Shown here in pieces: positions 4,593 through 22,195 of a stretch of DNA of 60,611 nt (the stretch's first letter is position 1; the number at the start of each line of letters is the position of its first letter). Below the pieces are notes generated by a model. That model ran no database searches and was not told the origin of the DNA. It worked only from the letters and a program-made list of their open reading frames with translations. Source of the DNA: Candidatus Omnitrophota bacterium (GTDB taxonomy: Bacteria > Omnitrophota > Gorgyraeia > Gygaellales > Profunditerraquicolaceae); NCBI GenBank assembly GCA_026387355.1, contig JAPLLW010000012.1:1-60611 (forward strand). The letters run 5' to 3'. The translations under genes and the position numbers were made by a program.

Positions 4593-4613
4593 ATAAGTAC
4601 AAAAGGAATTTGT

Positions 4614-5030
4614 ATGTATAAAAAATTATTTTTAATTATCTGTATCCTTGGATTTATTGTGGTTTCATATGCTGCAGAAAAGCCGTCGGCTGATAAAGTA
4701 TACGCTTATTATTTTCACGGCTCCATGCGTTGCCCTACTTGTTATAAGCTGGAACAGTATTCAAGGGAAGCCATAGAAACTAACTTTAAAGATGCGCTTG
4801 CCTCAGGAAAACTGGAGTTTAAAGTCGTCAATGTAGAGGATAGGGGTAATGAACATTATGGTAAAGATTATCAGCTTTATACCAAATCGCTTATCTTGTC
4901 TTTAGTCGAAAATGGCAAAGAAATTAAATGGAAGAATATGGATAAGATTTGGGAGTATGTCGGTAATAAGCAGAGATTTATTGATTATATAAAGAGCGAA
5001 GTAGCTAATTTTCTAAAGGAAACTAAATGA
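4614..5030 (+). CDS. Thioredoxin-like secreted/lipid-anchored protein, ArsF-like
   Basis: Signal peptide plus a CPTC (CxxC) motif. About 140 aa and translationally coupled to the next gene (ATGA overlap). The ArsF assignment is from memory of family naming. Confidence 0.55.
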   Translation: MYKKLFLIICILGFIVVSYAAEKPSADKVYAYYFHGSMRCPTCYKLEQYSREAIETNFKDALASGKLEFKVVNVEDRGNEHYGKDYQLYTKSLILSLVENGKEIKWKNMDKIWEYVGNKQRFIDYIKSEVANFLKETK

Positions 5031-5716
5031 CAGGGGTATTTATAGGATTTGCTTCAGCATTGTGGCTAGGTATATTAACTTCAATAAGCCCGTGTCCTTT
5101 GGCTAGTAATGTGGCCGCTATTTCGTTTCTATCTAAGAAAATAGCTCATCCGTTTTTTGTGTTCATCTCAGGACTGGCTTATACGCTTGGGCGCATGGCT
5201 TCTTATGCGATCTTGGGATGGATTATTATTAACTCTTTACTAAGCGTTCCGCAAGTCGCCCAGTTTTTACAGAAATACATGGGTAAGGCTCTGGGCCCAC
5301 TTTTAATTATTACAGGGCTTATGCTACTTGAAATAATTACTATTCGCTTGCCGGGAGTATCGCTTTCACAAAAGCATCATAATAAACTTGCAGAATCCGG
5401 GGCTCCGGGTGCATTTTTGCTTGGTTTTATTTTTGCTCTAGCATTTTGTCCTATTTCGGCAGCTTTATTTTTTGGTAGTCTTATCCCTTTAGCGATTAAC
5501 AGTAAAAGTGGCATTGTCCTACCATTTATTTACGGGATTGGTACAGGGTTACCGGTTCTTCTATTTGTTGTTGCTATTGCTTTGGGTGTGACATCTTTAA
5601 GTCATTGGTTTCATAGGATTACACGGCTCGAATACTACACTCGTAAAATTACCGGAGTCGTATTTATCCTTGTTGGTTTGTACTATACAGGAATATATAT
5701 TTTAAGATTATTTTAA
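5027..5716 (+). CDS. DsbD/CcdA-fold membrane protein, ArsG-like permease
   Basis: 229-aa six-TM-like protein with SISPCPLASN, a DsbD_2-type motif. Lies in the ars operon. Confidence 0.55.
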   Translation: MTGVFIGFASALWLGILTSISPCPLASNVAAISFLSKKIAHPFFVFISGLAYTLGRMASYAILGWIIINSLLSVPQVAQFLQKYMGKALGPLLIITGLMLLEIITIRLPGVSLSQKHHNKLAESGAPGAFLLGFIFALAFCPISAALFFGSLIPLAINSKSGIVLPFIYGIGTGLPVLLFVVAIALGVTSLSHWFHRITRLEYYTRKITGVVFILVGLYYTGIYILRLF

Positions 5717-5725
5717 GGTGAGCAA

Positions 5726-6535
5726 TTGGAAATAGACAAGAGTAAGCAGTATGAAATTATCGTTTTCCCGAATCAGGATGATGGCTTAAAAGCTCAGCGA
5801 GTTTTGCTTTCTAAATGCGCAGATTTTAAACATATTTCTACATTGGCGGTAGTTGTTCCTGAAGAGCATAAAGAGGCAGCGTGCCGAGCCATTATTGATG
5901 AAGATGTGCTGGTTAGCGGACATTATCCGTTTTTGTATCGTGATTATGAAGAAGATTTCTTCAAAAAAGCCCATGAATATAAGGCCTCAGAATCAAGCGG
6001 CGAATTCTTAAAGAGTATTACGTTATGTTATGTGGCACCTTGTATGGCTGATGAGAAAAAGATACGGCTAATTGGGTATTTCGATAGAGATATAACAGAG
6101 ATTTTACCTTATCTAAACGCTGTCATTAAAGGTGGATCATATAATAAGGGCGCATCGATTTTGACTTATGCGAAAGAGCGCCGCCTTATTAATTTGTACA
6201 ATATAAAAATTACCATTGCCAAGGCGGATGACATTATTGATGCGTGGGTGATATTGGATGAAGTTAAGAAGTTGGTAAGTAATACATACTCAAACCGTGA
6301 TACCATAAAACCGAACTATGAAGAAAAAGTTAAAGTAACCGCCTTGCAGATTTATGGTTGGCTTCCTAAGACTAATTGCCGTGCATGTGGAGAAGCAACG
6401 TGCCTTGCGTTCGCATGTAGGCTTTTATTGGGTGAGCAGAAGCTTTCAAGGTGTGTTCCTTTGTCAACGGAATCAAAATTCGTAGAGAATAAAAAGATCA
6501 TGCAGGAAATGGCAGAAGCATTGGGCGTTGCGTGA
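5726..6535 (+). CDS. Fe-S cluster domain protein, possibly ArsE-like
   Basis: TTG start after AAGGTGAG. C-terminal [26 protein letters not shown] resembles the PF04060-type putative Fe-S domain. Confidence 0.45.
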
Positions 6536-6557
6536 TGAAGATAATGGAGGGATAGGT

Positions 6558-7601
6558 ATGAGTGAAGGTATTGTTAAAAAATTATCGTTCTTGGATAGGT
6601 TTCTGACGTTATGGATATTCTTGGCTATGGGAATAGGAGTTTTCTCTGGATATGCCTATCCACAGATTGTAAACTTCTGGAATAGGTTCCAGGTTGGAAC
6701 AACCAATATCCCAATTGCCATAGGCCTTATCCTGATGATGTATCCTCCTTTGGCAAAGGTAAAATACGAAGAGATGGGGAGTGTTTTTCGTAACACAAAA
6801 GTATTAGTACTTACGCTTATTCAGAACTGGATAATTGGGCCAGTGCTTATGTTTATTTTGGCCGTTGTATTTTTGCGGGGATATCCTGAATACATGGCAG
6901 GGTTAATTATGATTGGGCTTGCCCGATGCATTGCTATGGTTATTGTTTGGAATGAATTAGCAAAAGGAGATACGGAATATTGTGCAGGTTTAGTTGCCTT
7001 TAATTCCATATTCCAAGTATTGTTTTATTCAGTTTATGCTTGGATTTTTATTACAGTATTACCAACATGGTTCGGGCTTAAAGGGTCAATAGTGCGCATC
7101 TCGATTGGTCAGATCGCTTGGAGTGTGTTTATATATTTAGGGATACCGTTTATTGCTGGGATTATCAGTCGTTTTAGTTTAATTAGACTTAAAGGAAAGA
7201 ATTGGTATGAGAAGAAGTTTATTTCACGTATTAGTCCTTTGACGCTTATCGCGCTTCTTTTCACCATTCTGGTTATGTTTTCCTTTAAGGGCGAATATAT
7301 TGTTAAGATTCCGCTTGATGTAGTGCGCATAGCGATTCCGCTTGTTATTTATTTCATAGTTATGTTCTTAGTTTCTTTTTATATGGGGAGGAAAACGGGA
7401 GCGGATTATTCAAAGACAGCTACTCTATCCTTTACGGCAGCAAGCAATAATTTTGAGCTAGCGATTGCAGTAGCAGTTGCTGTTTTTGGCATAAATTCAG
7501 GAGCGGCATTTGCGGCTGTAATAGGGCCATTAGTAGAAGTCCCAGTGCTTATAAGCCTTGTTAGCGTTTCTCTGTATTTTAAAAGAAAGTATTTTAACTA
7601 A
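6558..7601 (+). CDS. acr3: Arsenite efflux transporter, ACR3 family
   Basis: [16 protein letters not shown]-terminus and GLARCIAMV with the conserved Cys; 10-TM-like profile. ATG at 6558 follows GGAGGG. Confidence 0.9.
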
Positions 7602-7634: not shown

Positions 7635-7650
7635 ATGGCATACACGATCG

Positions 7651-7683
7651 ACCCGCTACAAAAGGCGGGTTTTTTGTTGCCTT
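7651..7683 (+). repeat. 33-nt direct repeat, copy 2 (terminator + TTGCCT)
   Basis: ACCCGCTACAAAAGGCGGGTTTTTTGTTGCCTT. Perfect ACCCGC/GCGGGT stem plus T6; 31 of 33 positions match 571-603. Confidence 0.85.
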
Positions 7684-7705
7684 ATAGTTATTCTGGGGTT
7701 ATAAT
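7677..7705 (+). promoter_or_regulatory. Putative promoter of the 7733-15031 operon
   Basis: TTGCCT (7677-7682), 17-nt spacer, TATAAT (7700-7705). Confidence 0.5.
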
Positions 7706-7732
7706 TAGTGGCAAAAGTAATGGAGAGTGAAA

Positions 7733-8839
7733 ATGAGAAAAGGACTGCTTACATTAATTCTTTTGATTCTGGCTATTCCCCTGTATGCCGATACTATTTA
7801 TTATACAGATGGAACAAAGTCCGAAGGTAAGATTGTTAAATTAACAAAAGATATTGTTATAATTAGGGAAATAGTTAGTGGGGCTCAGTGTGATACTGAG
7901 GCTCCACGGTTGTTGGTAGAGCGTATAGAAAGAGACTCTGGGGTAAAGTCTCGGCCTATTTCGAAGGAAACGATTAAAAAAGAGCCTATAGTAATACCAA
8001 TAGAAGTTCCTGCGTCTGTTGTGCAGCTTCCTTCGCCTGATATTGATGAAGATTCGGAGCAAAAAAAGGTAGATTTGCCAGAGCATGATTTGAAGAAGTT
8101 GTCAATGCGTGAGCAGAAAGGACCAATAGAGGAAGAATCGGTCAGGTCGCAGGCACAACAAAGAAATTTAGTTCAAGAGCAGGTGCTAAATGAGAAGGTT
8201 GTGCAAAAAGAGAAGAAAAAAGAGCCTATGCCTATACTAAAAACAGAGCCGGTATTAGTACAGGGAAGAAAGCCTATGTCTGTGTTGAAAACAGAGCCTG
8301 TATTAGTCCAGGGAACAAAACCTATTCTGGCGTTGAAAACAGAGCCCGTATTAGTACAGGGGACAAAGCCTATGCCGGCGCAGAAAGCAGAATCTAAGTT
8401 TGAACAAAAAACAAAGCCTAAGCCGGAACAAAAAATAAAACCCAAACCGGATCAGAAGATAAAGCCTATGCCGGTGCAAAAAACAGAGTCAGTCCAGGAT
8501 AAAAACAAACTTTGCAGGTATTCATTTAAAAAACGCGAGGATAAGACTTTGATCTTTGGTGATAAGGTAACCATGCGTAGGGTCGAATTATCTGTTGTTG
8601 TTCCTAACGATACTTCTTTTACTCAACTTCAGAATCTTTTCTCTTATTTTCTGCAAAAAGAGTTGCTCAAGGATAAAAAACTCGATGCTTTTTGGGTTAT
8701 AGCTTACCGTAAGGCTTACAGTAAGGAAGGTATTCCAATGGCCTATGGTATCTGGGCTCCGCCAGGCGGTTGGGATGATTTTGTGCATATCCAGAATAAA
8801 GATCAATATCAGTGGCAGTACCGTCTAATTAAACGATGA
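7733..8839 (+). CDS. Secreted/lipoprotein-like protein with tandem LKTEPVLVQGTKP repeats and a Lys/Pro-rich tract
   Basis: Signal peptide MRKGLLTLILLILAIPLYA. The N-terminal ADTIYYTDGTKSEGKIV motif is also seen in the 48908 protein. Contains three 16-aa tandem repeats. Confidence 0.7.
   Translation: MRKGLLTLILLILAIPLYADTIYYTDGTKSEGKIVKLTKDIVIIREIVSGAQCDTEAPRLLVERIERDSGVKSRPISKETIKKEPIVIPIEVPASVVQLPSPDIDEDSEQKKVDLPEHDLKKLSMREQKGPIEEESVRSQAQQRNLVQEQVLNEKVVQKEKKKEPMPILKTEPVLVQGRKPMSVLKTEPVLVQGTKPILALKTEPVLVQGTKPMPAQKAESKFEQKTKPKPEQKIKPKPDQKIKPMPVQKTESVQDKNKLCRYSFKKREDKTLIFGDKVTMRRVELSVVVPNDTSFTQLQNLFSYFLQKELLKDKKLDAFWVIAYRKAYSKEGIPMAYGIWAPPGGWDDFVHIQNKDQYQWQYRLIKR
8240..8383 (+). repeat. Three tandem 48-nt coding repeats
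   Basis: AAAACAGAGCC.GTATTAGT.CAGGG.A.AAA.CCTAT... repeats at 8240, 8288 and 8336, in frame within the 7733 gene. Confidence 0.9.
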
Positions 8840-8877: not shown

Positions 8878-10014
8878 ATGAATCTTCTTCTATTGGCTTC
8901 TAAAAACTTGTGGCATAGGAAGATGCGAACTTGCCTGACAATATTTGGCGTGGGTACAAGTATCGCCGTTTTTGTTTCGTTAGTCGGCTTAGCAGGAATT
9001 TTTACAGACGCATTTCGGCAGATGTACAAGTCGCGTCAAACAGATCTAGTCGTGCGGGAAAAAGGAAATTTTGATTTTCTATCCAGCGGTATCGATGAGA
9101 AATACGCGGATAAGATTATGCAGATACCGGAGGTCTTAAGCGTAAGTAAAATACTTATTGATTTTTCATTATCCGGGTCAAAGGATTATTTTCTGGTATT
9201 AGGATGGGACCAAGATGCCAGTTTATTTTCAAAACTAAGAATCCAAGGTAGGCGCCCGGAGAGTGATGATGAAGCCTTAGTCGGAGCGACTATCTCTAAG
9301 AAATTTAACAAGAAGATCGGTGATAAAATAGAGGTAAAAGGCTCTAAGCTTACGATTGTCGGTATTTTTGAAAGTAAGAGCATGTTTGAAGAAGGCAGTG
9401 TAATAATCCCGCTAGAGAAGCTTCAAATGATTAAAAAAGTTCCCGGCAAGATCACTCTGTTTAATATTGTGGTTAAAAAAGGGGGTTTTTACGGCGGCAA
9501 GCCGGTAAATGATGAGGATCAAATCGAGCGTACTCGATCTTTAATTGCGAAGATGCTTCCGGATACCGAAGTCAGGAGCGTTGAAGATATAGTTTCGGCG
9601 GATAATACAATGACATCTTTTCTGAATTTTGCCTGGGCGATATCCATAGTTGCCTTCATTGCGGCAGTCTTAGGGATAATTAATACTATGGTTACTTCGG
9701 TGTTGGAGCAGACCAGCAAAATCGGTATTTTACTGGCGATCGGCTGGAGGAAGCTAAAGATTCTCTGCCTCGTTCTATACGAGTCTATATTGTTAGGTAT
9801 GCTGGGAGGCGTTTTTGGTTTAATTCTAGGATACGGAATAATGAACATCTTGGTACGTTCACCGCAACTACAGAATATTGGCAGAGTTAACTACAACTTT
9901 ATTTTCATGGCAAAAGTAATTATGGTCTCTTTGTTAGTGGGTTTTTTATCCGGGATATATCCGGCGATTAGGGCGATTTCCATTAAACCGATTGAGGCAT
10001 TACGTTATGAATAA
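8878..10014 (+). CDS. ABC transporter permease, FtsX/MacB/LolCE type
   Basis: N-terminal TM (LRTCLTIFGVG), large periplasmic domain, then a C-terminal three-TM FtsX-like block ending IYPAIRAISIKPIEALRYE. Confidence 0.85.
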   Translation: MNLLLLASKNLWHRKMRTCLTIFGVGTSIAVFVSLVGLAGIFTDAFRQMYKSRQTDLVVREKGNFDFLSSGIDEKYADKIMQIPEVLSVSKILIDFSLSGSKDYFLVLGWDQDASLFSKLRIQGRRPESDDEALVGATISKKFNKKIGDKIEVKGSKLTIVGIFESKSMFEEGSVIIPLEKLQMIKKVPGKITLFNIVVKKGGFYGGKPVNDEDQIERTRSLIAKMLPDTEVRSVEDIVSADNTMTSFLNFAWAISIVAFIAAVLGIINTMVTSVLEQTSKIGILLAIGWRKLKILCLVLYESILLGMLGGVFGLILGYGIMNILVRSPQLQNIGRVNYNFIFMAKVIMVSLLVGFLSGIYPAIRAISIKPIEALRYE

Positions 10015-10672
10015 AGAGTCCTTAATCGAAACAGTCAATCTTTCAAGATATTATAAGGATGGTAAAGTTCTGGCGTTAGATAATGTTTGCCTAAAGATAG
10101 CTAAAGGTGAGTTTTTAGCGATTAAGGGATCTAGCGGGAGTGGAAAGTCAACCTTACTGCATCTAATCGGAGGATTAGATATTCCTACTGCAGGGGAAAT
10201 ATATTTTGAGGGACAAATTGTCAGCGAGGTTTATAAAAAAAGAGGGTTCAGGTTGAACAATTTAGGATTTGTATTTCAAGCCTTTTATCTGTGGCCGGTG
10301 CTAAATGTCTTGGAGAATGTGTTGTTACCCTTAATGGAATCGTCTCTAAGCAGGCAAAAGAAGCTCCAAAAAGCAAAAGATATTATTAATCTAGTTGAAA
10401 TGAATGACAAGATTTCCTCTTCCGTGAGCAATCTTTCTATCGGCCAGAGGCAGAGGGTGGCCATAGCCAGGGCCTTAGTGATGGATCCTAAGCTGGTATT
10501 AGCAGACGAGCCGACTGGTAATCTTGACTCAAAAAACACAGAGAACGTCCTGTCTCTTTTTAAAACATTAAATAAGCAAAGAGACGTTACTATCGTTATG
10601 GTTACACACGAGGAAAAGGCACTTATTTTTTGCGATCGCTGGATTCAATTATCAGATGGTAAGCTGCAATAG
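10007..10672 (+). CDS. ABC transporter ATP-binding protein (MacB/LolD-like)
   Basis: Walker A GSSGSGKST, signature LSIGQRQRVAIARAL, Walker B LVLADEPTGNLD. ATG at 10007 overlaps the permease stop (ATGAATAA). Confidence 0.9.
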   Translation: MNKESLIETVNLSRYYKDGKVLALDNVCLKIAKGEFLAIKGSSGSGKSTLLHLIGGLDIPTAGEIYFEGQIVSEVYKKRGFRLNNLGFVFQAFYLWPVLNVLENVLLPLMESSLSRQKKLQKAKDIINLVEMNDKISSSVSNLSIGQRQRVAIARALVMDPKLVLADEPTGNLDSKNTENVLSLFKTLNKQRDVTIVMVTHEEKALIFCDRWIQLSDGKLQ

Positions 10673-10687: not shown

Positions 10688-11638
10688 ATGGTCAATCTAG
10701 GTTTAGCGCTTCAAGTTTTAGCGGTATATTTGTCACTTAGCAAGCAAGGAAAGGGTTTCTTAAAAAAAGCCGTTGGAAAATCCCACCAGTTAGATAAAAT
10801 ATTAAGTAAGTCAGTTTTTACGGATCTTCAGAAAATACTTTATTTAATTAAGGCTTTTAAAGTTTGCGATAAAGTATTTAACCGTCAGGTATCAGATCAA
10901 TTATGTTCTGATCTTGGGCGAGAGAAATCCGCGATGTACTCAAGATTCGTATCTTACGGTTGGTTTAGTTTGTTGATGTGGGGTAAGGTACTTGAGGCAT
11001 TTAATCTGGTTTATGATGAAGACGCAAAGGAGCGCTGCGTCCTTGTTGCCTTCACGCATCGTGAATGGAATGACCTCTTTGATAATCAAGGCTATTCTTT
11101 TAAAGAACTGGTTATGGCTTTTGATTATCAGGCGACCATACCCAAGCAGCTGATTTTTCTAAGGCAGCTTAAACATATGGAGAGAAAACTTGCTCCGCCG
11201 GAACGTTTCGGCAAATTTTATCAGCATATGCAGGGATTTGATATTTGCAGTCTTTTTGAATATACGCCGGAAAAAGCCGAGATAATTTTGAATCAGGTTG
11301 CCCCGTTCATCGCCCTGCTATTTATGTATATCATGGTTTCGGAAATACCCGAGGGATTAAAAGAAGCCTTGAAGCCGGTTTCCAGATGGTTGTACATGTT
11401 GGATGAATTAGCGGATTTAGAGCATGATAGGCAGATAAACAGGGTAACGTATATGATTATGGTTAAGCAGCCTGAAAATGCGATGCGGGAACAATTCGAG
11501 GAGTGTCGCAAGGTTATATTGCGTAACGCTCCTAACCCGGATAAATTAATCAAATTTATGGAGACAATTACATCTAGGGTCATCGACGCAAGGAAACGGG
11601 GAACAAATATTGAGAGTAGTTTTTTTAACATCAGTTGA
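10688..11638 (+). CDS. Squalene/phytoene-synthase-like (class I isoprenoid synthase fold) paralog with degenerate Asp-rich motifs
   Basis: Paralog of 14078-15031 (KERCVLVAFTHREWNDLFDN, LDELADLEHDRQINRVTY, NAPNPD). Family assignment is by motif reading only. Confidence 0.45.
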   Translation: MVNLGLALQVLAVYLSLSKQGKGFLKKAVGKSHQLDKILSKSVFTDLQKILYLIKAFKVCDKVFNRQVSDQLCSDLGREKSAMYSRFVSYGWFSLLMWGKVLEAFNLVYDEDAKERCVLVAFTHREWNDLFDNQGYSFKELVMAFDYQATIPKQLIFLRQLKHMERKLAPPERFGKFYQHMQGFDICSLFEYTPEKAEIILNQVAPFIALLFMYIMVSEIPEGLKEALKPVSRWLYMLDELADLEHDRQINRVTYMIMVKQPENAMREQFEECRKVILRNAPNPDKLIKFMETITSRVIDARKRGTNIESSFFNIS

Positions 11639-11656
11639 ACACAGAAGTAAATCGGA

Positions 11657-12832
11657 GTGCTAAAAGTGATGAGAATAGTCGGAAAAAGAAAACTGATTCC
11701 GGAATTGTCGGAATTATTAAGTAAGCTTGCTGTTGATCACTTAGCCCAACAAAAATTTCTAGTTCAAATGGTTAGAATTACGGCAATGATCTCTAATCCG
11801 CTCATCAGAGCCGCTTTTTTCCGCGCTTATCTTAGGATTCACGCGAATAAGATTAATAAAGATGGTCGGCATGGCTCAGTAGTCATAGAGATTACCAAGC
11901 GCTGTAATCAACAGTGCCCACATTGCTATTCTCGGGTGCAGCGTAAGAAAAACATGAAGGCCAATACAATTAATCAAATAATAAAATTGGTGCGCAATAA
12001 TTATAAACACATTTTTATTACCGGAGGAGAGCCGACCCTGGATAAGCGTGTTTTAAGCATCGCTAAGATTAATCCGGATATCATGTTTTTTATGTTTACC
12101 AATGGTGGTCCGATCGACCAATCTTATGCCAGGAAGCTTGCGGCAGTCGGCAATCTGATACCGATTTTAAGCATTGATGGATATTCACAAAAGCAGCATG
12201 ATTATTTTAAAGGAAAGGGTAGTTACCAACGGGTTATGCGGGCAATTAAAGTATTAAATTCAGTCCGGATGCCTTGGGGATACTTATCCATGATTACCAA
12301 TATTAACGCCCGCCAAGTTCTTAGTAAGAAATTTGTTAAAGCCATGAAGCAGAAAGGCGCAATTCTTGCCAGGTATTTGGAGTTTTTTCCGGTGGGGCCG
12401 CATGCTACTCCAGAGTTGGTGCCGTCAGCAGAAACTTACTATTTGATGGAAAAAAGAAAACAGGAGATTATCAATGACGACGAAATATATATGCAGGAGA
12501 CGGTTCAAAAGAAATGTTTAGGTATGATATTTTTTGATGTGAATGGTAACATAAAATGCTGTCCATTTTTTCATTATTCCAAGCATAATATTGCCCAGGG
12601 AAATATCGAAGGGCTGATAAAAAGTTCTACCTTAGATTGGTGCCGGGCTAAATATCCCGGAGAATGTCCGGTTTATTCTGACCAGAAAGGGTTAAAAGCG
12701 CATCTTCTAAAGCGAAAATGGAGACCAACCATCTCATTCAGCCAAGGAAATTCAATTACTCCGCAATTAGCTAAAGTTATGTCTGATAACTACCGGTCAT
12801 TTCTAAAGATTAAAGCCGCTAGGCCCTTATAA
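11657..12832 (+). CDS. Radical SAM enzyme with Cys-rich C-terminal (SPASM/twitch-like) region
   Basis: CNQQCPHCY (CxxxCxxC), GGEPTL, and C-terminal KKCLG..NIKCCPFF..WCRAKYPGECP. The start may instead be ATG at 11669. Confidence 0.8.
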   Translation: MLKVMRIVGKRKLIPELSELLSKLAVDHLAQQKFLVQMVRITAMISNPLIRAAFFRAYLRIHANKINKDGRHGSVVIEITKRCNQQCPHCYSRVQRKKNMKANTINQIIKLVRNNYKHIFITGGEPTLDKRVLSIAKINPDIMFFMFTNGGPIDQSYARKLAAVGNLIPILSIDGYSQKQHDYFKGKGSYQRVMRAIKVLNSVRMPWGYLSMITNINARQVLSKKFVKAMKQKGAILARYLEFFPVGPHATPELVPSAETYYLMEKRKQEIINDDEIYMQETVQKKCLGMIFFDVNGNIKCCPFFHYSKHNIAQGNIEGLIKSSTLDWCRAKYPGECPVYSDQKGLKAHLLKRKWRPTISFSQGNSITPQLAKVMSDNYRSFLKIKAARPL

Positions 12833-14073
12833 TGAGAAACTGTGATCTTCCTACCCGAACAAATCCTTGGGGGATGGTTAAGACTATCGGCAATACAGTA
12901 AGCGCTGATAAGAAGTCTTTAATTAAGTATGTTGAATTTAATATTACTGGTAGATGCCAGGCAGGCTGTATTACCTGTCCGACCCCGCTAGCTTATCCTA
13001 ATGAAAAAATATTTAAGACAGATATTGATCTGAGGCGTGAATTTAAACTTTTCCAGTTTTTCTTGATCAAGCTAAAGAAATTAGGGATGGAGTTTGTGAC
13101 TATTTACGGCCGGGAACCTACGCTTTGGGATAAAGAGGCAGATGAGCCAAATAAGTTCCTAAAAAGTATGATTCTCTGGCTAAGTAAAGATTTAAAAGTC
13201 AGAGTTTGTTTAGCTACCTCCGGAATTTCCTTAGAGGAATCTGTTTTAAAAGTTTTATTCGACAATCATGGCGTATTATTTATGAAAGATTGGGGAAGTG
13301 AAGGATCTGTGGAGAAGTTGATAAAAAATAAAGGCGCCTACTCAAAAATCCGGCAAAGCTGGGATCTTGTAAAGAGTTTAGGTAAACGTTATAAGAAGAC
13401 CAGGGTCGTAGCCGAGTTTTTATATACCGGCATTAATCGGGGCGATCTTCTGGCGTTTTGGAGAAGTTGTTTTAAAAACGGATTCTTACCTTTTGTAGAG
13501 TCTCCGGTGATCAAGGGTAGTTGTGTTAAAAATTATAAACAATTAAATACCAACCCGGAAAGCTATGTTAGAGATATATATGAACTTTCTCTCCTGAATT
13601 TATCTTTGAGGTATGGGTTGAGCAAGTTAAAGGCGAGCCAAACTGATATTTGGCAGCCGCCTTATGGGAGCGTTTTTCCATCTCCTTGCGATAAGTTAAC
13701 CTATGCCAGGGGGCTATTTCTGGAGAGGAATGGCAACCTCAGTCTTTGTTGCGGAGTAGATAAGCGGTTAGGGAATATAAATGATAAGGATATTAAGCGC
13801 AAGCTGCAGGATAATTCATTGCTTAAGCGAATACGCCTGGCCTATGAAAATTTAGAAGGCTTTTGCGGTACTTGCGATTATAGCAGAGAATTTCATCTTT
13901 GTTATGGCTGCCGCGGTAACGGTTATACTTATCAGGGTAGTAGTCAGGGTGTATTTGGCCAGGATCCGATGTGCTTTGGTAAAATAGCGCTAGAGTTAGA
14001 AGGACAAGGCAAGCTTGGCAGTTTCATGAGTAAAAAGCATATACAGAAAATACTCGATTATTTTAATAATTAA
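12832..14073 (+). CDS. Radical SAM/SPASM-domain enzyme
   Basis: GRCQAGCITCP (CxxxCxxC), YGREPTL, and C-terminal LSLCCGV..GFCGTCDYSREFHLCYGCRGNGY. TAATG overlap with the previous gene. Confidence 0.75.
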   Translation: MRNCDLPTRTNPWGMVKTIGNTVSADKKSLIKYVEFNITGRCQAGCITCPTPLAYPNEKIFKTDIDLRREFKLFQFFLIKLKKLGMEFVTIYGREPTLWDKEADEPNKFLKSMILWLSKDLKVRVCLATSGISLEESVLKVLFDNHGVLFMKDWGSEGSVEKLIKNKGAYSKIRQSWDLVKSLGKRYKKTRVVAEFLYTGINRGDLLAFWRSCFKNGFLPFVESPVIKGSCVKNYKQLNTNPESYVRDIYELSLLNLSLRYGLSKLKASQTDIWQPPYGSVFPSPCDKLTYARGLFLERNGNLSLCCGVDKRLGNINDKDIKRKLQDNSLLKRIRLAYENLEGFCGTCDYSREFHLCYGCRGNGYTYQGSSQGVFGQDPMCFGKIALELEGQGKLGSFMSKKHIQKILDYFNN

Positions 14074-14077
14074 GACG

Positions 14078-15031
14078 ATGCTAGAGAAGATTAATATTCT
14101 TGGTTTATATATTTCATTGTCCGGTAACGGTAAGAGGCTATTTAGGCGCTTTGCTAGGATGTTAAATAATGCGCGCAGTCTTTCGTATTCACGGGAGCTG
14201 GTGGCAACAATTAATGATACTATGGGCGTCGATAAAAAGAAGTGGTTTTCCTGTATTAGGGCAAGCGACTCAGGATTTAAAGAGTTTATTCCAGACTGGT
14301 ATATCGCTGGATCTAAAATTAAGCCCGAACAATTATATTACCGATTTTTTAAAATGGGGGCTGTCCTTTTATACGAACATTCTAGTTTATTTTTAGCGTA
14401 TAATATATCAGTCGATACAAAAGCGAAGAAAAGATGCATTCTTCTGGCATTTCTGAAGCGGGTATACGATGACCTAATTGATAATGAACATATTGGGAAA
14501 GATATTTTATTTAATAGTCAGCCAAATATAGGATTAATGAATAATGCTGACTACAGGTTGTTTTTAGATTTAAGGAAAAAGATTAGGGAAGTAGCTTCAC
14601 CTTTGGAGTTCGTTAATTATTACGCTACCCTTAAAGAAGTAAATGATGCACAGGGCATTCTGGCTTGCGATAAGAGCGTAGAAAATACTATTCCTTATAA
14701 AATCAAGAATGGTTTTCTCCTGGATATGTATATTATGATGAATGATCTACCGGATGAACTTATCAGGGCTTTGGATGTTACCGCTGAGTTTTTTGCCTGC
14801 CTGGATAATTTTTACGATTATGACGAAGATCTGGCTAAGGGCAAGATCACTTACATTAATCAAAGCATAGACCCCAAAGGAGCTCTGGAACAAAAATTTG
14901 AGAAAGCCGCCGTATACTTACGAAAGAATAGTCCTAACCCAGACGGGTATTTAAAAGGATTAGGAAGTTTGATGAAAATCGTACTCTTTGCACGTGAAAA
15001 GAAACTAAATAAATTATCATCATTTGTATAA
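14078..15031 (+). CDS. Squalene/phytoene-synthase-like protein (class I isoprenoid synthase fold)
   Basis: LLAFLKRVYDDLIDN and LDNFYDYDEDLAKGKITYI resemble the two Asp-rich motifs of the SQS/PSY family (AxCRxxDDxxD; RDxxEDxxxGRxYLP). Confidence 0.5.
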   Translation: MLEKINILGLYISLSGNGKRLFRRFARMLNNARSLSYSRELVATINDTMGVDKKKWFSCIRASDSGFKEFIPDWYIAGSKIKPEQLYYRFFKMGAVLLYEHSSLFLAYNISVDTKAKKRCILLAFLKRVYDDLIDNEHIGKDILFNSQPNIGLMNNADYRLFLDLRKKIREVASPLEFVNYYATLKEVNDAQGILACDKSVENTIPYKIKNGFLLDMYIMMNDLPDELIRALDVTAEFFACLDNFYDYDEDLAKGKITYINQSIDPKGALEQKFEKAAVYLRKNSPNPDGYLKGLGSLMKIVLFAREKKLNKLSSFV

Positions 15032-15092: not shown

Positions 15093-15126
15093 CAGGGCTA
15101 GACTGAATAGTTTTAGCCCTTTTTGT
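15093..15126 (+). terminator. Rho-independent terminator ending the 7733-15031 operon
   Basis: GGGCTA (15095-15100) pairs with TAGCCC (15114-15119), then TTTTT. Preceded by TATAATCTGT (15076-15085), as at 341-350. Confidence 0.75.
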
Positions 15127-15318
15127 TTATTTGGTATCCACTGCTACTTCCTGCGTTCTAAATCTTAGCTGGTTTAATCCCTCCTGAAAGCGCTTTCAAG
15201 AAAACCAAGTTTTGTACTTGAAATTAGCTGAAAGTAAAGCATACTTTATAGGTAAGCATGCCCTAAAGGCCGAATAAACATTTATAATAAAAACAATATG
15301 AATATTGAGGAGGATGCG

Positions 15319-16815
15319 ATGAAGACTTTAAAAGTTAACCTAGCAGATATTTTTTTAAGTGTTTGTTTTAGCGTTGTTATGTGCTTAAGCTTTGTCTCAT
15401 TCATCTACGCTGAAGGTTCGTATAATGACGAACCGGAACAAAGTTCGCAGTCTTATCAACAACCAGCCGCTGTTTCCTATCAGGACAACTCTAGTGCATA
15501 TAACTATGCTCCTACATATAACAATACACCTAACAATACACCTGATTTGAGCAATATAAGTAACAGTTTGATTATGCAGCCAAGCAGTAATTATCCGGGG
15601 ATTGATTCAGCAAACACACAAGTTTTAGGTTCTTCAGTAAACCAGCCGGCTAATGCCGTTGTTCAGAATTTTGTAACTAACCAGTTTTCAGGCGCAGATG
15701 TAGGCCAAGCTATCGGTCCGGCCGCGACATTAAATGATTCGACAGGCAGTAGCTATCCAGGGATGGGTGGTTTTTCTTTAATGGTAACTGAGGGTACGCC
15801 TGTTGGAAATACTAATTTAGTGAATGATATCAATATACCTTCCGGAAATGATATTATAGTTAACAATATGATCGCTGATGCTGCCAGAGAAGGCGGACCA
15901 CAATTCATTACTAAAGAAATGTTAAGTGACCCGGCTGCGCTCGAAATGTTAAGTAAAGCATGGTCCCCGAATGCAAGCAACCTATCTTCAGAAGTACAGC
16001 CGTTCACTAAAAATACACCTGTAGCTACTAATGATTGGTCAGAGATGCAACTTACCCCCATGTATGACAATTCACCCGGGATTAGCGCTCCTGTCGAAGT
16101 AGATAACATTATTAATCAAACCAAAGAAGTCTTAAATAATAGCGCTTTATCCGGATCAGAAAATCTAATACCTTGGTCGGAATCAAAACAGTATACCAGC
16201 CCTGAATCAGATATTTTTCCGCTTGGAACTGCTCCTCAAGAAAATCTTATATATAAGGTACTTGAGCCGATAGAGATCCCTTATCAAATACAAGCATCGC
16301 CAGTTGAGAAACAGCGAGAAATAATACAAGAAGCTCCCGCACAAGAGATTACTACCTCTTCTTATCCAGGGCTTGCCGGATTTGTCATTAGCTCTATGGT
16401 TACTGAAGCAGGAGATATCAACACAAATGGAGAAATTAATCCTAATCGCGGGCCTATACACCTAGACTCTAATAATGGCAATTGGGAAACTAATGAAGAA
16501 GACCAAAGAGCGATAGATTATTACTTCCATAATGATTATATTGATAATGGGAAGAACGCAGGTATAGAGAGTACCCCAGTTCTTAAGGATACTATGCCTG
16601 GGATGTCAATAGAAAGTAGCATAGTCCCTAAGGATGCTAATCCCGGGGTGTCAGAGGCAGGTCAAGCTATCGGTCCGTCAGCTCAGCAAGGGTTTCAAGG
16701 GTTTGACACAGCAGGGTGGGTACGTATTGATAATGAAGGGAATTTGCGAAATTCGCAAGGTATGATTACCGGACATACTACCGAGCGATTGATTGTGTTG
16801 CCTAAGGGTGAATAA
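15319..16815 (+). CDS. Secreted low-complexity (Asn/Ser/Pro-rich) protein with internal repeats
   Basis: ATG at 15319 follows GAGGAGGA. Signal peptide ends in IYAE. Repeats: SSYPGMGGFSLMVTEG / SSYPGLAGFVISSMVTEAG and GQAIGPAA / GQAIGPSA. Confidence 0.65.
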   Translation: MKTLKVNLADIFLSVCFSVVMCLSFVSFIYAEGSYNDEPEQSSQSYQQPAAVSYQDNSSAYNYAPTYNNTPNNTPDLSNISNSLIMQPSSNYPGIDSANTQVLGSSVNQPANAVVQNFVTNQFSGADVGQAIGPAATLNDSTGSSYPGMGGFSLMVTEGTPVGNTNLVNDINIPSGNDIIVNNMIADAAREGGPQFITKEMLSDPAALEMLSKAWSPNASNLSSEVQPFTKNTPVATNDWSEMQLTPMYDNSPGISAPVEVDNIINQTKEVLNNSALSGSENLIPWSESKQYTSPESDIFPLGTAPQENLIYKVLEPIEIPYQIQASPVEKQREIIQEAPAQEITTSSYPGLAGFVISSMVTEAGDINTNGEINPNRGPIHLDSNNGNWETNEEDQRAIDYYFHNDYIDNGKNAGIESTPVLKDTMPGMSIESSIVPKDANPGVSEAGQAIGPSAQQGFQGFDTAGWVRIDNEGNLRNSQGMITGHTTERLIVLPKGE

Positions 16816-18097: not shown

Positions 18098-18165
18098 GTG
18101 ATGGTCAGGAGTATAATTGTTTTGCTAATAAATTCGGAGGATAGCTGTTGCTAAGAGGGGGAATT

Positions 18166-18642
18166 ATGAAATATGCCAGGAAGATGAAATATGTTAAGCC
18201 GTACACAGCAACAGATGCCTTGGAAATAGCTCTTGAAAAAGAGAAAACCGCATATAAATTCTATGATCAGCTGCTTAAAGATGCAAAGGAGTTCAAGCTG
18301 GTATCCGTAGTAAAGAAGCTGCGAGATTCCGAAGGGGTGCATGTTAAGATTATACAAAGAATGCTTGAGAATAAGAAAAGTGGTGCAGAAGATATCAAGA
18401 TAGATAAAAGGATAAAATATGCTACAAAAGAAAGTTATAATAAGCCTAAAACCTTTGAAGAAGCGTTAGAGCTTGCTTTGGTAAGAGAAAAGTCCGCAGC
18501 AGATTTTTATTGCCATTTTTATCGTCAACTGTTTGGTAATTCGGAAAGTTTATACCTACTGGTTGTATTAAAGAAGCTAAGTTATATGGAGAAAGCGCAT
18601 ATTAAGATTGTTGAGCGCATGTTGAAAAATAAAGTTTTTTAG
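18166..18642 (+). CDS. Rubrerythrin/ferritin-like di-iron four-helix-bundle protein (duplicated half-domains)
   Basis: Two repeats of A.E.A...EK.A..FY ... L...E..H.KI..RML (the E...ExxH pattern twice). ATG at 18166 follows AGAGGGGG. Confidence 0.55.
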   Translation: MKYARKMKYVKPYTATDALEIALEKEKTAYKFYDQLLKDAKEFKLVSVVKKLRDSEGVHVKIIQRMLENKKSGAEDIKIDKRIKYATKESYNKPKTFEEALELALVREKSAADFYCHFYRQLFGNSESLYLLVVLKKLSYMEKAHIKIVERMLKNKVF

Positions 18643-18665
18643 GATTATTAAATCAAGGAGGCAAG

Positions 18666-19028
18666 ATGGGACAAAACGAGAAGAAGCGGAGTGGCTGCTT
18701 AACGGTTTTCTTAATCCTAATGCTTATCGCAAATGCATTAGTAACCTTGCTCTATATTTTTGGTCCTTTTTTTGTAAGACAAACTCTTCCTAATTATCCG
18801 GCCTGGGGGATTCCGATTCTAACAATTTTGTGTATTCTAAACATCGTATTTGCTGTTGCTGTTTTTAAATGGAAAAAGTGGGGCGTCTACGGGTTTGGTG
18901 CTAATTCCATAATAGCCTTTTCGATAAATTTAATTACAGGTGTCCCGTTTTTCTCCGCCTTGATCGGGTTTCTTGGAATAATTATACTTGTGTTATTGGT
19001 TCGTCCAGTATGGAATTGTCTTGAGTAG
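18666..19028 (+). CDS. Hypothetical polytopic membrane protein
   Basis: Preceded by AAGGAGG. Three to four hydrophobic helices. Confidence 0.55.
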   Translation: MGQNEKKRSGCLTVFLILMLIANALVTLLYIFGPFFVRQTLPNYPAWGIPILTILCILNIVFAVAVFKWKKWGVYGFGANSIIAFSINLITGVPFFSALIGFLGIIILVLLVRPVWNCLE

Positions 19029-19106
19029 AATCTTTATAGCTAAACGAAAGGGATATAATCTATTCTCGGAAGGCCAAAGGTTTGTTTATATAAAAGGAGA
19101 GATCAT

Positions 19107-19481
19107 ATGAAGACTTACAAGTTATTAGCTATGTGGGTTTGTTTACTGCTGATTTTCTCTCAATCGGGTTGTGCTACTGCCGGGAATAGCAGTCCTCTGC
19201 AAAATCTTAAAATCGGTATGAGTAAAGATGAAGTTCGCCTTTTAGCAGGTAACCCCGACACAATAAAACAAGCAACAAAAAACAATACTGGTAAAAACAT
19301 CGAATCCTGGACGTATTCTCTTAAGACCGAAGAATATCTGCTTCGCTTTAAAGATGATAACCTAGCTTGGTGGGGGGAGAAACAAGATTGGATAATGTCA
19401 TCAGATTATAGCGGGGAAACACTACAGGAAGAAGAGGGTATTCGAGACACAACCGGATTGGAAGAAACTATAAACGATTAA
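19107..19481 (+). CDS. Lipoprotein
   Basis: Signal peptide with lipobox-like FSQSGC. Preceded by AAAGGAGAG. Confidence 0.6.
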   Translation: MKTYKLLAMWVCLLLIFSQSGCATAGNSSPLQNLKIGMSKDEVRLLAGNPDTIKQATKNNTGKNIESWTYSLKTEEYLLRFKDDNLAWWGEKQDWIMSSDYSGETLQEEEGIRDTTGLEETIND

Positions 19482-19618
19482 AGTATTGAAGATTAAATTT
19501 ATGTTTGAGCAAATCATAAAGCATAAGTATTTTTTTCATATTGTAACATTAATGGTTATTCTATCCGTAACTATTTTATTTATTATCTTTAGCGGAACTC
19601 AAAATTAGAAAGCTAAAG

Positions 19619-20206
19619 ATGGCAATCAGAATCAAGCCACCTGTAAAGTTTAGAATAGATCAACCAATGAAAGAAGGGATATTCTTAGCCGTATTTATTT
19701 TTTCCTGCTTCTTTTTTACTTATGCTGAAGAAGATTATTCCGCTAGCTATTCGGAGGTTGCCGCTTCTGGTTCGGCTATTGAATCTACATATGCAGATAC
19801 CGCAGCTTACTTGGAATCACAATATGCCAATGAATCAGTTAATCCTTCTGCCTGGGCGGTTGAAGCCTCTTCCTCAGGAGACGGTGGTAATGATTATGGC
19901 GCAAGTTATTCGGAAATCATTTCGTCCAACGCTACTATAAATGCAATGTATTCTGATATAGTAGCTAGGCATGAAGCTCAATTCGCCAACGAATCTATCC
20001 TACCGGCTTATTGGGGGGCAGGTTCTGTTGATGACCAAAGTGAATATGATCATTATATAGATCTTACCCCGCGCTCTAATGTAGATTTAAGAAATGTTGC
20101 TATCCCGCCGGTTTTAAGGAAGAGCGAGTCTTCTGAGGGTGAGGAAAAACCTTTTACGGAAAAAGATCAGGATACTAAAAAGGCTTCAGAAGAAGATAAC
20201 AAATAA
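19619..20206 (+). CDS. Secreted acidic protein with an internal duplication
   Basis: DYSASYSEVAASGSAIESTYADTAAYLESQYANESVNPSAW is repeated as DYGASYSEIISSNATINAMYSDIVARHEAQFANESILPAYW. Signal peptide ends in TYAE. The start may be 19667. Confidence 0.5.
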   Translation: MAIRIKPPVKFRIDQPMKEGIFLAVFIFSCFFFTYAEEDYSASYSEVAASGSAIESTYADTAAYLESQYANESVNPSAWAVEASSSGDGGNDYGASYSEIISSNATINAMYSDIVARHEAQFANESILPAYWGAGSVDDQSEYDHYIDLTPRSNVDLRNVAIPPVLRKSESSEGEEKPFTEKDQDTKKASEEDNK

Positions 20207-20231
20207 AATCTTTTTATGAAAGGAAAGAAAG

Positions 20232-20618
20232 ATGTTTAAAAGAAAAGGTAATGCAGTTTTACAGTATGGGATTCTAGTAGCTCTGGTAATTTCCACGTTA
20301 CTTATTATGCAGGCGTTTATTAAAAGAGGATACCAGGGCTCATTAAAGGCATCCGCTAACAGAATTGGAGAGCAATTCTCTACGAGTTCAGAGACTATAA
20401 AAACAGAGCAGACCTTGTCTGAGGAGGGGCAGGTTATTGATACACACGTTCTTCCTGCTGATAAGCCGGGAGTCTACACTTGGAATACTAATACTGGCGC
20501 AGAAGTAACCGTTGTTACTCAGGCCAAGTCAGGGATTCTTAGCAAAGAGAAGGCAAGGTTAGATGATTATGCAACGGATGCTTTAAGCGGGAACATAACT
20601 GACCCAGATCTTCCATAA
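20232..20618 (+). CDS. Flp/class-III-signal-like prepilin with an extended C-terminal domain
   Basis: MFKRKGNAVLQYGILVALVISTLL resembles the Flp motif G-x-T-A-I-E-Y-G-L-I-A-A-L-I, with Q in place of E. Total length is 128 aa. Confidence 0.45.
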   Translation: MFKRKGNAVLQYGILVALVISTLLIMQAFIKRGYQGSLKASANRIGEQFSTSSETIKTEQTLSEEGQVIDTHVLPADKPGVYTWNTNTGAEVTVVTQAKSGILSKEKARLDDYATDALSGNITDPDLP

Positions 20619-20683
20619 TAAACAGTAAATATTGATTTAATGAATAAATTATCATAGTATTTTAAGAGGAGTAAAGAAGAATT

Positions 20684-20974
20684 ATGGGCAAAAAATCTTA
20701 TGCATTAGTTTGCATAATTGTCTTTTGGGTTTGTTTTATCGTAGCAGCTTATGCTACAGCGGAGAATATTTCTAAGCCTGCTTCGGCTACTTCAGTAAAG
20801 CCAACCTTGCCTGTTACAAAATCAGATCCTGTTTTAAATTCAAAGAAGGATAAGGGCAATATAAAACACCACACTGCGGTTAAGAAGAAAAGCAGCGATA
20901 AGTCTGGCAAGTTAACAAAGGTTAAGTGGAAGGTAAAGCCCATGAGGAATGAATATAGCAAGAGAGGTTGGTAA
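20684..20974 (+). CDS. Small secreted Lys-rich protein
   Basis: Signal peptide followed by a basic low-complexity tail. Preceded by AGAGGAG. Confidence 0.45.
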   Translation: MGKKSYALVCIIVFWVCFIVAAYATAENISKPASATSVKPTLPVTKSDPVLNSKKDKGNIKHHTAVKKKSSDKSGKLTKVKWKVKPMRNEYSKRGW

Positions 20975-21033
20975 TCAAGCGTTGACGATAATAATATTAT
21001 AATTGCTTATAATGTGCTAGAATAAATTTAGAG

Positions 21034-21387
21034 ATGGATAACCAACGTAAGCAAATTAGAATTAATAAGTTTGTAACTGTTGGTTATTATCAGCTAAGGG
21101 GTTTTCTTCGTTCCTCTTGTCACAGTAGAGATGTTTCAATAACTGGGATTAGGTTAGCTAGTTTTCAGAGATTTGAGCCTAAGATTGTTCTAAAACTGCA
21201 GATTAATTTACGGGATGATTTTAAGCCTGTTGAGGCCGTAGGAGAGGTGGTCTGGTTAAAAGATACCAAGGATAGGAGTTTTCCTTACGATATTGGATTA
21301 AAGTTTATTAAAATTAATGCGGATGCAAGTAAAAAGATCGGCGATTATATTAAAGAAATGATAGAAAAAGAAGGGATAAGAGCTTAA
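21034..21387 (+). CDS. PilZ domain protein (candidate c-di-GMP receptor)
   Basis: RKQIR (RxxxR) and DVSITGIRL (DxSxxG) motifs in a 117-aa protein. Confidence 0.65.
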   Translation: MDNQRKQIRINKFVTVGYYQLRGFLRSSCHSRDVSITGIRLASFQRFEPKIVLKLQINLRDDFKPVEAVGEVVWLKDTKDRSFPYDIGLKFIKINADASKKIGDYIKEMIEKEGIRA

Positions 21388-21402
21388 GAAGTCTAAATTA
21401 AA

Positions 21403-21942: not shown

Positions 21943-21943
21943 T

Positions 21944-22195
21944 ATGCGCAATAGACTTAAAAAAATCGAATACCTGAATATTATTCTTACAGCTATTCTT
22001 ATTCTATTATTTTTGTTTTCTTTTCTTATGATCAGATTGCAACTGCCTTTAATTGAATTAAACAAGAACCTTAAGGTCTTAACTGAATCAAATAATATGA
22101 TAATAAGCCTTCAGCAGCGCCTAGAGAAGACTACTTTGGAGCTTAAGGATCAAATTGAGCTGTTTAACAGCAAATTTGTGAAAAAGAAGAAATAA
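21944..22195 (+). CDS. Small membrane-anchored coiled-coil protein
   Basis: One TM helix. Start overlaps the upstream stop (TAATATG context). Confidence 0.4.
   Translation: MRNRLKKIEYLNIILTAILILLFLFSFLMIRLQLPLIELNKNLKVLTESNNMIISLQQRLEKTTLELKDQIELFNSKFVKKKK

Follow-up and report, generated by a model that had tools for sequence, protein, structure and literature searches.

The window analysed here is a 60,611-nucleotide stretch of DNA (positions 1-60611) from an uncultured Omnitrophota bacterium, and positions are numbered along it unless a related locus is named. It carries a compact block of six genes in which two paralogous proteins, A1 and A2, flank two radical S-adenosylmethionine (SAM) enzymes, B and C, and an ATP-binding cassette (ABC) transporter pair lies directly upstream. 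A sequence-only reading of this DNA had described A1, B, C and A2 as a candidate isoprenoid or lipid-modifying module, with A1 and A2 as squalene synthase/phytoene synthase (SQS/PSY)-like enzymes. The four genes are tightly packed on the plus strand, and the open reading frame (ORF) list bears out their coordinates and their junctions, namely an 18-nt gap between A1 and B (11639-11656), a TAATG stop/start overlap between B and C (12830-12834) and a 4-nt gap between C and A2 (14074-14077). The intergenic gaps inside the block are 16, 18, -1 and 4 nt. The four-gene core is conserved as a unit, but the module had been drawn too narrowly: the ABC pair (8878-10672), which was missed together with a terminator-like hairpin at 15094-15120, belongs to it in most loci. 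The features of the block are as follows.

8878-10014, plus strand: MacB-type (type VII) ABC permease; Pfam MacB_PCD (PF12704) 3e-16 and FtsX (PF02687) 2e-15
9992-10672, plus strand: ABC ATPase, LolD/MacB-like; Pfam ABC_tran (PF00005) 4e-33; its start overlaps the permease gene
10688-11638, plus strand: A1, 316 amino acids (aa), paralog of A2; weak DUF5685 match
11657-12832, plus strand: B, radical SAM enzyme, 391 aa; Pfam Radical_SAM 6e-20
12832-14073, plus strand: C, radical SAM/SPASM enzyme, 413 aa; Pfam Radical_SAM 1.8e-5 and SPASM 5e-4, both slightly under their gathering scores
14078-15031, plus strand: A2, 317 aa; no Pfam or NCBIfam match; characterised by an AlphaFold2 model and Foldseek
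15094-15132, plus strand: terminator-like hairpin GGGCUAGAC...GUUUUAGCCC, then UUUUUGUUUAUUU; imperfect stem, with the hairpin itself at 15094-15120

A tblastn census yielded 13 genome loci and 21 metagenome loci, the metagenome scan having been run with A1-type sequences only. The A1-B-C-A2 core, described by the sequence-only reading from a single genome, recurs in about 20 loci, most of them from Omnitrophota, one from Lentisphaerae and the rest unclassified, and no Omnitrophota-type locus with sufficient flanking sequence lacks it. In L001-L005 all six genes form one conserved block in the order MacB_PCD/FtsX permease, ABC ATPase, A1, B, C, A2, while the flanks differ, and in most loci the ABC pair lies directly 5' of A1. 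No conserved seventh gene or substrate was found 5' of the permease, where the proteins encoded in the window, L001 and L004 are unrelated. In one locus (L046, 987-2938) a tandem duplicate of A1, with copies 74% and 68% identical to the A1 of the window, precedes B, C and A2.

The A1/A2 family and its predicted fold

By sequence A1 and A2 are true paralogs, as had been supposed: about 310 residues align at 27% identity (E=9e-30). The pair is kept side by side across deep divergence. Among 5.8 billion proteins, 43 relatives were found for A2 and 40 for A1, all unannotated, and those carrying an organism name all come from Candidatus Omnitrophota. A combined A1 and A2 profile searched against 1.84 billion cluster representatives (50% identity) found only 53 proteins, 31 of them below 1e-30. 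These counts mark the A family as genuine yet rare.

When 35 members, the most distant of them only 15-20% identical, are aligned, the strongest conservation falls in two Asp-rich motifs. In A2 numbering D64, Y87, A107, R128, D132, D243, D247 and D251 are invariant and R89, R119, L133 and D135 nearly so. Motif 1 has the form R-x2-(D/N)-D-L-x-D, which reads DDLID in A2-type and NDLxD in A1-type proteins, and motif 2 the form D-x3-D-x3-D-x3-G-(K/R)-x-T-Y. In A2 they are R128-x2-D131-D132-L-I-D135, a canonical DDxxD (nt 14459-14482), and D243-x3-D247-x3-D251-x3-G255-K256 (nt 14804-14845). The counterparts in A1 are R125-x2-N128-D129-L-x-D132 (nt 11060-11083) and D239-x3-D243-x3-D247-x4-R252 (nt 11402-11443). 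The two peptides LLAFLKRVYDDLIDN and LDNFYDYDEDLAKGKITYI, which the sequence-only reading took as the Asp-rich motifs of the SQS/PSY family, are present in A2.

For A2, an AlphaFold2 model computed from 46 family sequences is confident (pLDDT 88.5, pTM 0.88) and all helical. When it was compared with the PDB by Foldseek, the top 50 matches were exclusively class I isoprenoid enzymes, comprising farnesyl (FPP), geranylgeranyl (GGPP), geranylfarnesyl (GFPP) and octaprenyl diphosphate synthases and the Streptomyces terpene synthase 4zq8. The best matches are the prenyl-diphosphate synthases 3lom, 4kkm, 7my0 and 5zlf. E values start from 6e-4, TM scores are 0.44-0.58 for the best matches, and the Foldseek probability is 1.00 for most and at least 0.99 for all; no SQS/PSY chain is among the top 50. 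In the model, helix 114-137 ends in motif 1, and motif 2 occupies the end of helix 226-246 together with helix 248-253. An all-alpha architecture, structural similarity to known members and two conserved acidic motifs thus assign A2, at the level of a predicted structure, to the class I isoprenoid/terpenoid synthase fold, and the terpenoid-synthase character proposed for the 316- and 317-aa proteins survives in this form.

Membership in a known family of that fold does not follow. The Pfam models PF00494 (SQS/PSY), PF00348 (prenyl-diphosphate synthases) and those for terpene synthases match neither A1 nor A2, PF00494 not even at E<=1, and PF00494 matches none of the 35 family members. NCBIfam holds nothing for either protein. 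The sole Pfam signal is DUF5685 (PF18937), which is sub-threshold for A1 (E=0.004) and absent for A2; nine of the 35 members match it in the motif 2 region with E values from 5e-4, all under the gathering score (17 vs 26.7 bits). Searches of PDB sequences with single sequences and two family profiles gave no meaningful match to the A family, and KwaB (E=0.026) and PEX19 (E=0.09) were judged chance similarities. A few remote relatives show faint polyprenyl_synt matches.

The motif pattern taken by itself agrees with SQS/PSY. In a small reference profile of seven annotated CrtB, CrtM and HpnD proteins, R42, D45 and D49 and then N157, D161, D165 and R170 are invariant (Thermus CrtB numbering). 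A2 has R128/D131/D132/D135 and D243/D247/D251/K256 at the equivalent places, the spacing within motifs is the same in both families, and the distance from motif to motif is 116 residues in A2 as in Thermus CrtB. Alignment of profiles by hhalign, however, gave the A family and this small SQS/PSY reference a probability of 1.1%, and paired motif 2 of the former with motif 1 of the latter. The SQS/PSY assignment of the sequence-only reading therefore stands for motif layout and spacing, whereas membership in the family is rejected at the level of hidden Markov models (HMMs) and profiles and has no counterpart in the Foldseek top 50. Membership among the prenyl-diphosphate synthases is rejected as well: no HMM matches, motif 2 is DxxxDxxxD rather than DDxxD, and hhalign gives a probability of 6%, placing motif 2 and G(K/R)xT on SARM and GKxT at the cost of an 11-residue gap. 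In a control with equally small profiles, SQS/PSY and prenyl-diphosphate synthases recognised each other with a probability of 77%. Judged by the model and the alignment, A1 and A2 thus constitute a new, very divergent and unnamed family within the class I isoprenoid-synthase fold, with an SQS/PSY-like motif layout.

A1 and A2 might be non-catalytic helical partners or chaperones of the radical SAM pair, their acidic motifs binding metal or a non-isoprenoid phosphate and their fold recording only a remote ancestry. The absence of HMM or profile similarity to any isoprenoid enzyme, TM scores of only about 0.5 and the NDxxD that replaces DDxxD in A1-type proteins are all compatible with such a role. 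It agrees less well with the invariance of both motifs over very deep divergence and with the invariant Arg three residues before motif 1, as in SQS/PSY. A-type genes also stand repeatedly beside polyprenyl synthases where radical SAM genes are absent, as described below, so that the A proteins are not mere accessories of B and C. We regard a non-catalytic role as unlikely.

Radical SAM enzymes, putative exporter and related loci

B and C are radical SAM enzymes with Cys-rich C-termini, as had been recognised from their sequences. In B the motif CNQQCPHC provides the invariant CxxxCxxC cysteines C83, C87 and C90 (nt 11903-11926), and PF04055 matches at 72.4 bits against a gathering score of 29.5. 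Three further cysteines, C287, C302 and C337, are invariant in orthologs as distant as 46% identity. They would fit one auxiliary cluster of the twitch kind, an assignment that is inferential because there are just three invariant C-terminal cysteines and no SPASM HMM match. B also has a partly conserved N-terminal extension of about 75 aa. Its PDB sequence matches include SkfB (1e-7) and GDGT-MAS (7tol, 4e-6), and its NCBIfam matches are generic and all far under their cut-offs (NirJ, AhbC/D and MoaA at about 1e-13 to 1e-15).

In C the motif CQAGCITC corresponds to the invariant C42, C46 and C49 (nt 12955-12978). Seven SPASM cysteines (C286, C306, C345, C348, C357, C360 and C381; nt 13687-13974) are invariant in 35 homologs, even though the scores for PF04055 (25.4 vs 29.5 bits) and for the SPASM model PF13186 (20.7 vs 21.5 bits) fall slightly under gathering. 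The AlphaFold2 model of C (pLDDT 92.4) finds anSMEcpe as its top Foldseek match (2e-9) and 67 further chains at E<=1e-3, among them CteB, SuiB, EpeE, BlsE and viperin. The cysteine motifs and the fold match to the SPASM enzymes anSME, CteB and SuiB identify C as a radical SAM/SPASM protein. The best NCBIfam matches of its C-terminal domain are TIGR04053, AhbD and NirJ2 (2e-7 to 5e-6), all under cut-off. Outside the radical SAM core B and C have no detectable similarity to each other, and neither comes near any NCBIfam equivalog cut-off. Since relatives of the two enzymes act on peptides, sugars, nucleotides and lipids, the substrate class cannot be read from homology. The nearest structural neighbour of C was considered as a clue to its substrate and found uninformative, as peptide, sugar and nucleotide enzymes all match.

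The transporter combines a MacB periplasmic core domain, an FtsX permease and a separate ABC ATPase, and is of the MacB (type VII) kind. The ATPase scores best with NCBIfam LolD (2e-64) and reaches 2e-55 with DarD, the darobactin exporter, both under the curated cut-offs, and since all such matches are sub-cut-off the pair is no equivalog of LolCDE, MacB or DevCA. Two kinds of related locus depart from this arrangement. L036 and L037 keep all four core genes (31, 49, 49 and 35% identity to A1, B, C and A2 of the window) and have, in place of the ABC pair, an MMPL transporter with faint Patched and sterol-sensing matches and a DctP-like protein. In the Lentisphaerae locus L019 the block is split into the convergent units C-A2 and permease-ATPase-A1, so that the link between transporter and A1 survives the rearrangement.

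Other genes beside the module differ from locus to locus. In L036 (9738-14297, minus strand) they encode an acyl carrier protein (ACP), a ketoacyl synthase (KS) and two B12-binding radical SAM proteins. In L001 (12516-20852) they encode a ketoreductase (KR), a DAO/NAD_binding_8 oxidoreductase, KS, ACP, an acyltransferase, an AMP-ligase, an ApeP-like radical SAM/SPASM protein, LolA and MMPL, and resemble an aryl-polyene-type cluster. On the 7.6-Mb contig of L039 (6741-18370) IS66 and DDE transposases immediately precede a B-C pair, and 4.7-7 kb downstream of this pair are two Nif11-type peptide genes and a C11 peptidase.

The connection to isoprenoids comes from more distant relatives. At six loci (L018/L060, which are Aminicenantes, L053, L056, L057, L059 and the P0105 contig) a lone A1-type gene, 25-31% identical, adjoins a gene for a fusion protein of about 730-750 aa composed of a CrtC/AttH N-terminal lipocalin, Lipocalin_9 and a polyprenyl synthase (for example L018 1538-3736 and L053 8911-11163). 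The orientation of this gene pair varies among the loci, some having it co-directional and some convergent. The fusion is always found beside a single A1-type gene. By gene order, the pair looks like a separate two-gene isoprenoid unit that has not been described. In the high-GC locus L021 the C-terminus of an FtsX permease, a polyprenyl synthase, an iron-sulfur (Fe-S) protein, a different radical SAM/SPASM enzyme and an A1-type gene occur together, and in L016 an A1-type gene adjoins an MMPL transporter. Proteins of the A2 type, which have the canonical DDxxD, are confined to positions 3' of a C-type radical SAM gene (L019, L020, L036), while A1-type proteins occur with and without the radical SAM pair. 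Independent neighbourhoods of this sort tie the A family, on the evidence of gene context, to prenyl-diphosphate metabolism and lipid-type export.

Maturation of a ribosomally synthesised and post-translationally modified peptide (RiPP), or of a protein, has to be weighed against a lipid pathway. B and C would then modify a peptide encoded elsewhere, A1 and A2 would serve as peptide prenyltransferases or scaffolds, and the ABC pair would export the peptide. ComQ, an enzyme of prenyl-synthase fold, is the peptide prenyltransferase for ComX. Peptide maturases and anSME are among the nearest characterised relatives of B and C, by HMM as well as by fold; pumps of the MacB type export peptides too, and the DarD match of the ATPase, under cut-off as it is, points the same way, as do the Nif11-type precursor genes 6.5 kb downstream of B-C in L039. 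Five unrelated genes, however, separate these precursors from B-C in a locus disrupted by insertion sequences. No small conserved ORF lies in or beside the block in about 20 loci, the junctions are too short to hold one, and the upstream genes vary between loci. Pfam and NCBIfam show no RiPP recognition element (RRE)/PqqD, protease or leader-processing domain, so the usual components of a RiPP cluster (precursor gene, RRE and leader peptidase) were not found, with room left for a precursor encoded at a distance. The MMPL transporter of L036 is of a type typical of lipid export, and A-type relatives pair with the polyprenyl synthase/CrtC fusions where no radical SAM gene is present. Peptide maturation is, on balance, improbable.

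Somewhat less probable still is a function in cofactor tailoring. C could be an AhbD/NirJ-like tetrapyrrole enzyme, or the radical SAM enzymes could modify a prenylated quinone with A1 and A2 acting on its side chain, the pump being a Lol-like housekeeping system. The C-terminal domain of C does score best against TIGR04053, AhbD and NirJ2, B matches NirJ, AhbC/D and MoaA, the ATPase is most similar to LolD, and the ABC pair is absent from some loci. These model matches are, however, far under the cut-offs (for example 30 vs 395-500 bits) and cover only the generic core or the SPASM region. No heme, quinone or UbiA-type gene is found in the block of the window or in related loci, and the association with a transporter persists through the rearrangement in L019 and the change of transporter class in L036. 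An anti-phage defence system was also considered and rejected, PADLOC giving just generic ABC and viperin-core matches.

Transcription unit and flanking genes

The surroundings of the block in the window include the following features.

3630-4592: ArsP-type permease
5027-5716: DsbD_2 membrane protein
5726-6535: 269-aa protein with a C-terminal PF04060 Fe-S domain
6528-7601: ACR3/SBF-family transporter
7677-7705, plus strand: best sigma-70-like promoter match, TTGCCT-17-TATAAT; consensus match only, possible start of the transcription unit
7727-8839, plus strand: 370-aa secreted protein with a signal peptide; no Pfam match; 38 nt 5' of the permease

A strong terminator at 7650-7671 lies just 5' of the promoter-like site and of gene 7727-8839; promoter-like sites around the module show no enrichment over shuffled sequences. 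The secreted protein contains tandem repeats of 24/48/96 nt at 8223-8485, with units like KTEPVLVQG(T/R)KP. Its gene may be co-transcribed with the permease, but membership in the module is doubtful, because it is not conserved in related loci, where tblastn finds no match. At the other end, the operon probably terminates at the hairpin 3' of A2 (15094-15132), which folds at -12.7 kcal/mol (z = -1.8) and has an imperfect stem that a simple terminator scan missed. An Rfam scan of the whole window detected no riboswitch or other RNA regulator.

The gene run at 3630-7601 resembles an arsenic-resistance locus, is set off from the module by the terminator at 7650-7671 and is unrelated to it. Downstream, two secreted low-complexity proteins are encoded, one of 505 aa without a Pfam match (15298-16815; repeats SSYPG(M/L)(G/A)GF and AGQAIGP) and one of 195 aa (19619-20206; repeats DY(S/G)ASYSE...ANES). 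Positions 18148-31219 are syntenic with L004 11074-20954, whose A2 is 56% identical to that of the window. The synteny covers a rubrerythrin-like protein, a tetratricopeptide repeat (TPR) protein and a GH94 glycoside phosphorylase (23877-26219), and the next ORFs, of 431 and 976 aa, match adenylosuccinate lyase and PurS/PurL-like genes of L004 by order and size only. This synteny indicates that the genome behind the window is a related one from Omnitrophota. GC skew is positive in every 2-kb bin of the window and long ORFs are almost all on the plus strand; the whole window appears to lie on the leading strand of one replichore.

Proposed pathway and comparison with known systems

From the gene content, the paralogy, the predicted fold, the motifs, the Fe-S cysteines, the translational coupling of B and C and the gene neighbourhoods we infer a substrate class, an order of steps, a radical chemistry and an export route. 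The block would be a dedicated operon that makes and exports a modified isoprenoid lipid, in the order A1/A2, B/C, exporter, a reading to which we give about an even chance. A housekeeping prenyl-diphosphate synthase of the cell would supply an all-trans polyprenyl diphosphate. A1 and A2 would each bind this substrate through Mg2+ at the two Asp-rich motifs and then ionise or condense it, probably in two non-redundant steps, like HpnD/HpnC or SSL-1/SSL-2, or as a heterodimer. The translationally coupled B and C, with one auxiliary cluster of the twitch type and two of the SPASM type, respectively, could next modify the hydrocarbon at unactivated carbons by C-C cross-linking, cyclisation or a similar radical step. 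Finally, the MacB-type ABC pair, or the MMPL protein in L036, would pull the finished lipid out of the inner membrane towards the envelope.

Several observations weigh against this pathway. Neither the window nor the Omnitrophota loci contain a polyprenyl synthase, cyclase or reductase, so that the isoprenoid link is supplied by distant relatives, at 25-31% identity; elsewhere in the window there is no SQS/PSY or prenyl synthase homolog. The sequence-only reading had likewise seen no cyclase, HpnE, polyprenyl synthase or precursor peptide, and the window indeed lacks them all. Profile searches of PDB sequences link A1 and A2 to no characterised isoprenoid enzyme, Pfam and NCBIfam to nothing beyond the weak DUF5685 matches, and the hhalign probabilities for SQS/PSY and for prenyl-diphosphate synthases are low, the former with a small reference profile. 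The fold match of A2 is moderate (TM about 0.5). Among the closest structural and HMM relatives of the two radical SAM proteins are numerous enzymes that modify peptides (anSME, CteB, SuiB, SkfB, WgkB). The ABC pair is absent 5' of A1 in L008, L012, L013 and L049. In L039 the A family is missing within 10 kb of the B-C pair (46% and 52% identity), and two Nif11 peptide genes lie at a distance of 6.5 kb.

A bolder form of the lipid pathway can be put forward only tentatively. In it A1 and A2 would represent a catalytic family new to the terpenoid-synthase fold and, with the SPASM/twitch radical SAM pair, build an unprecedented envelope lipid of Omnitrophota and a few further uncultured lineages that is exported by MacB or MMPL transporters; an isoprenoid condensed head-to-head and then radically cross-linked or cyclised would be an example, close to what the sequence-only reading had suggested. 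This bolder form, if true, would offer a new route to complex isoprenoid lipids without squalene-hopene-type cyclases and a potential source of orphan sedimentary biomarkers. If the lipid pathway itself is true, the isoprenoid-synthase fold has in the A family an unnamed branch that all the curated HMM libraries tested have missed, and the constant association of this family with two radical SAM enzymes and a lipid-type exporter indicates an undescribed isoprenoid lipid chemistry, in a widespread phylum that is almost uncultured and about whose envelope lipids next to nothing is known. The four genes, about 4.3 kb in total, are small and expressible targets for new terpenoid and lipid-directed radical SAM reactions, and the two-gene unit of an A protein and the CrtC-lipocalin/polyprenyl-synthase fusion provides an easier entry to the basic reaction of the A family.

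The sequence-only reading could not map the gene combination onto a named pathway, and Pfam, NCBIfam, the PDB and the literature offer no description of the A family or the cluster; literature searches on terpene synthases with radical SAM/SPASM enzymes, on isoprenoids and biosynthetic gene clusters of Omnitrophota and on phytoene synthase with MMPL returned no description of it. Among known enzymes, SQS/PSY proteins (CrtM, CrtB, HpnC/HpnD, SSL-1/2/3) share with the A family the class I alpha-helical fold superfamily, as far as the A2 model goes, and the layout R-x2-(D/N)D-x2-D and (N/D)-x3-D-x3-D-x4-(R/K). The A proteins are likewise kept as a paralog pair. HpnC/HpnD and the SSL enzymes of Botryococcus split two half-reactions between them. 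A1 and A2 differ in that they have no HpnE or desaturase partner and are accompanied by radical SAM enzymes instead. The trans-isoprenyl diphosphate synthases (IspA, IspB, CrtE, GGPPS) are the best structural matches of A2, but residues invariant in a reference alignment of these synthases, K45, R48 and the pair R93-R94 (IspB numbering) included, have no counterpart among those that are invariant or nearly so in the A family. DUF5685 is the only Pfam family with any signal; all its matches are sub-threshold, and the family is itself uncharacterised and mentioned in a single paper, in passing.

The radical SAM enzymes Tes/GDGT-MAS, GrsA/B and Mss catalyse C-C bond formation at unactivated carbons of lipids, and the core of B is weakly similar to GDGT-MAS (7tol, 4e-6). 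The similarity to these enzymes is confined to the generic radical SAM core, the peptide enzyme SkfB scores higher for B, C finds its best fold matches in anSME and CteB, and no glycerol-ether lipid genes adjoin the module.

A parallel in overall design is offered by the hopanoid hpn clusters. HpnH, HpnJ and HpnP are radical SAM enzymes of types other than SPASM/twitch. The radical SAM enzymes of the module are SPASM/twitch types, the module has neither a squalene-hopene cyclase nor HpnE, and none of its six proteins reaches an Hpn equivalog cut-off in NCBIfam. The logic is nevertheless the same, with two paralogs of the head-to-head-synthase fold, radical SAM tailoring and a dedicated lipid exporter, and the MMPL transporter of L036 is a further likeness, as hpn uses the MMPL protein HpnN. 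An hpn cluster combines HpnC/HpnD, radical SAM enzymes and an MMPL exporter (see also PMC12324291). The fold and the enzyme superfamilies of the Omnitrophota module are thus known, while the A family, its pairing with SPASM/twitch radical SAM enzymes and its association with an exporter are new.

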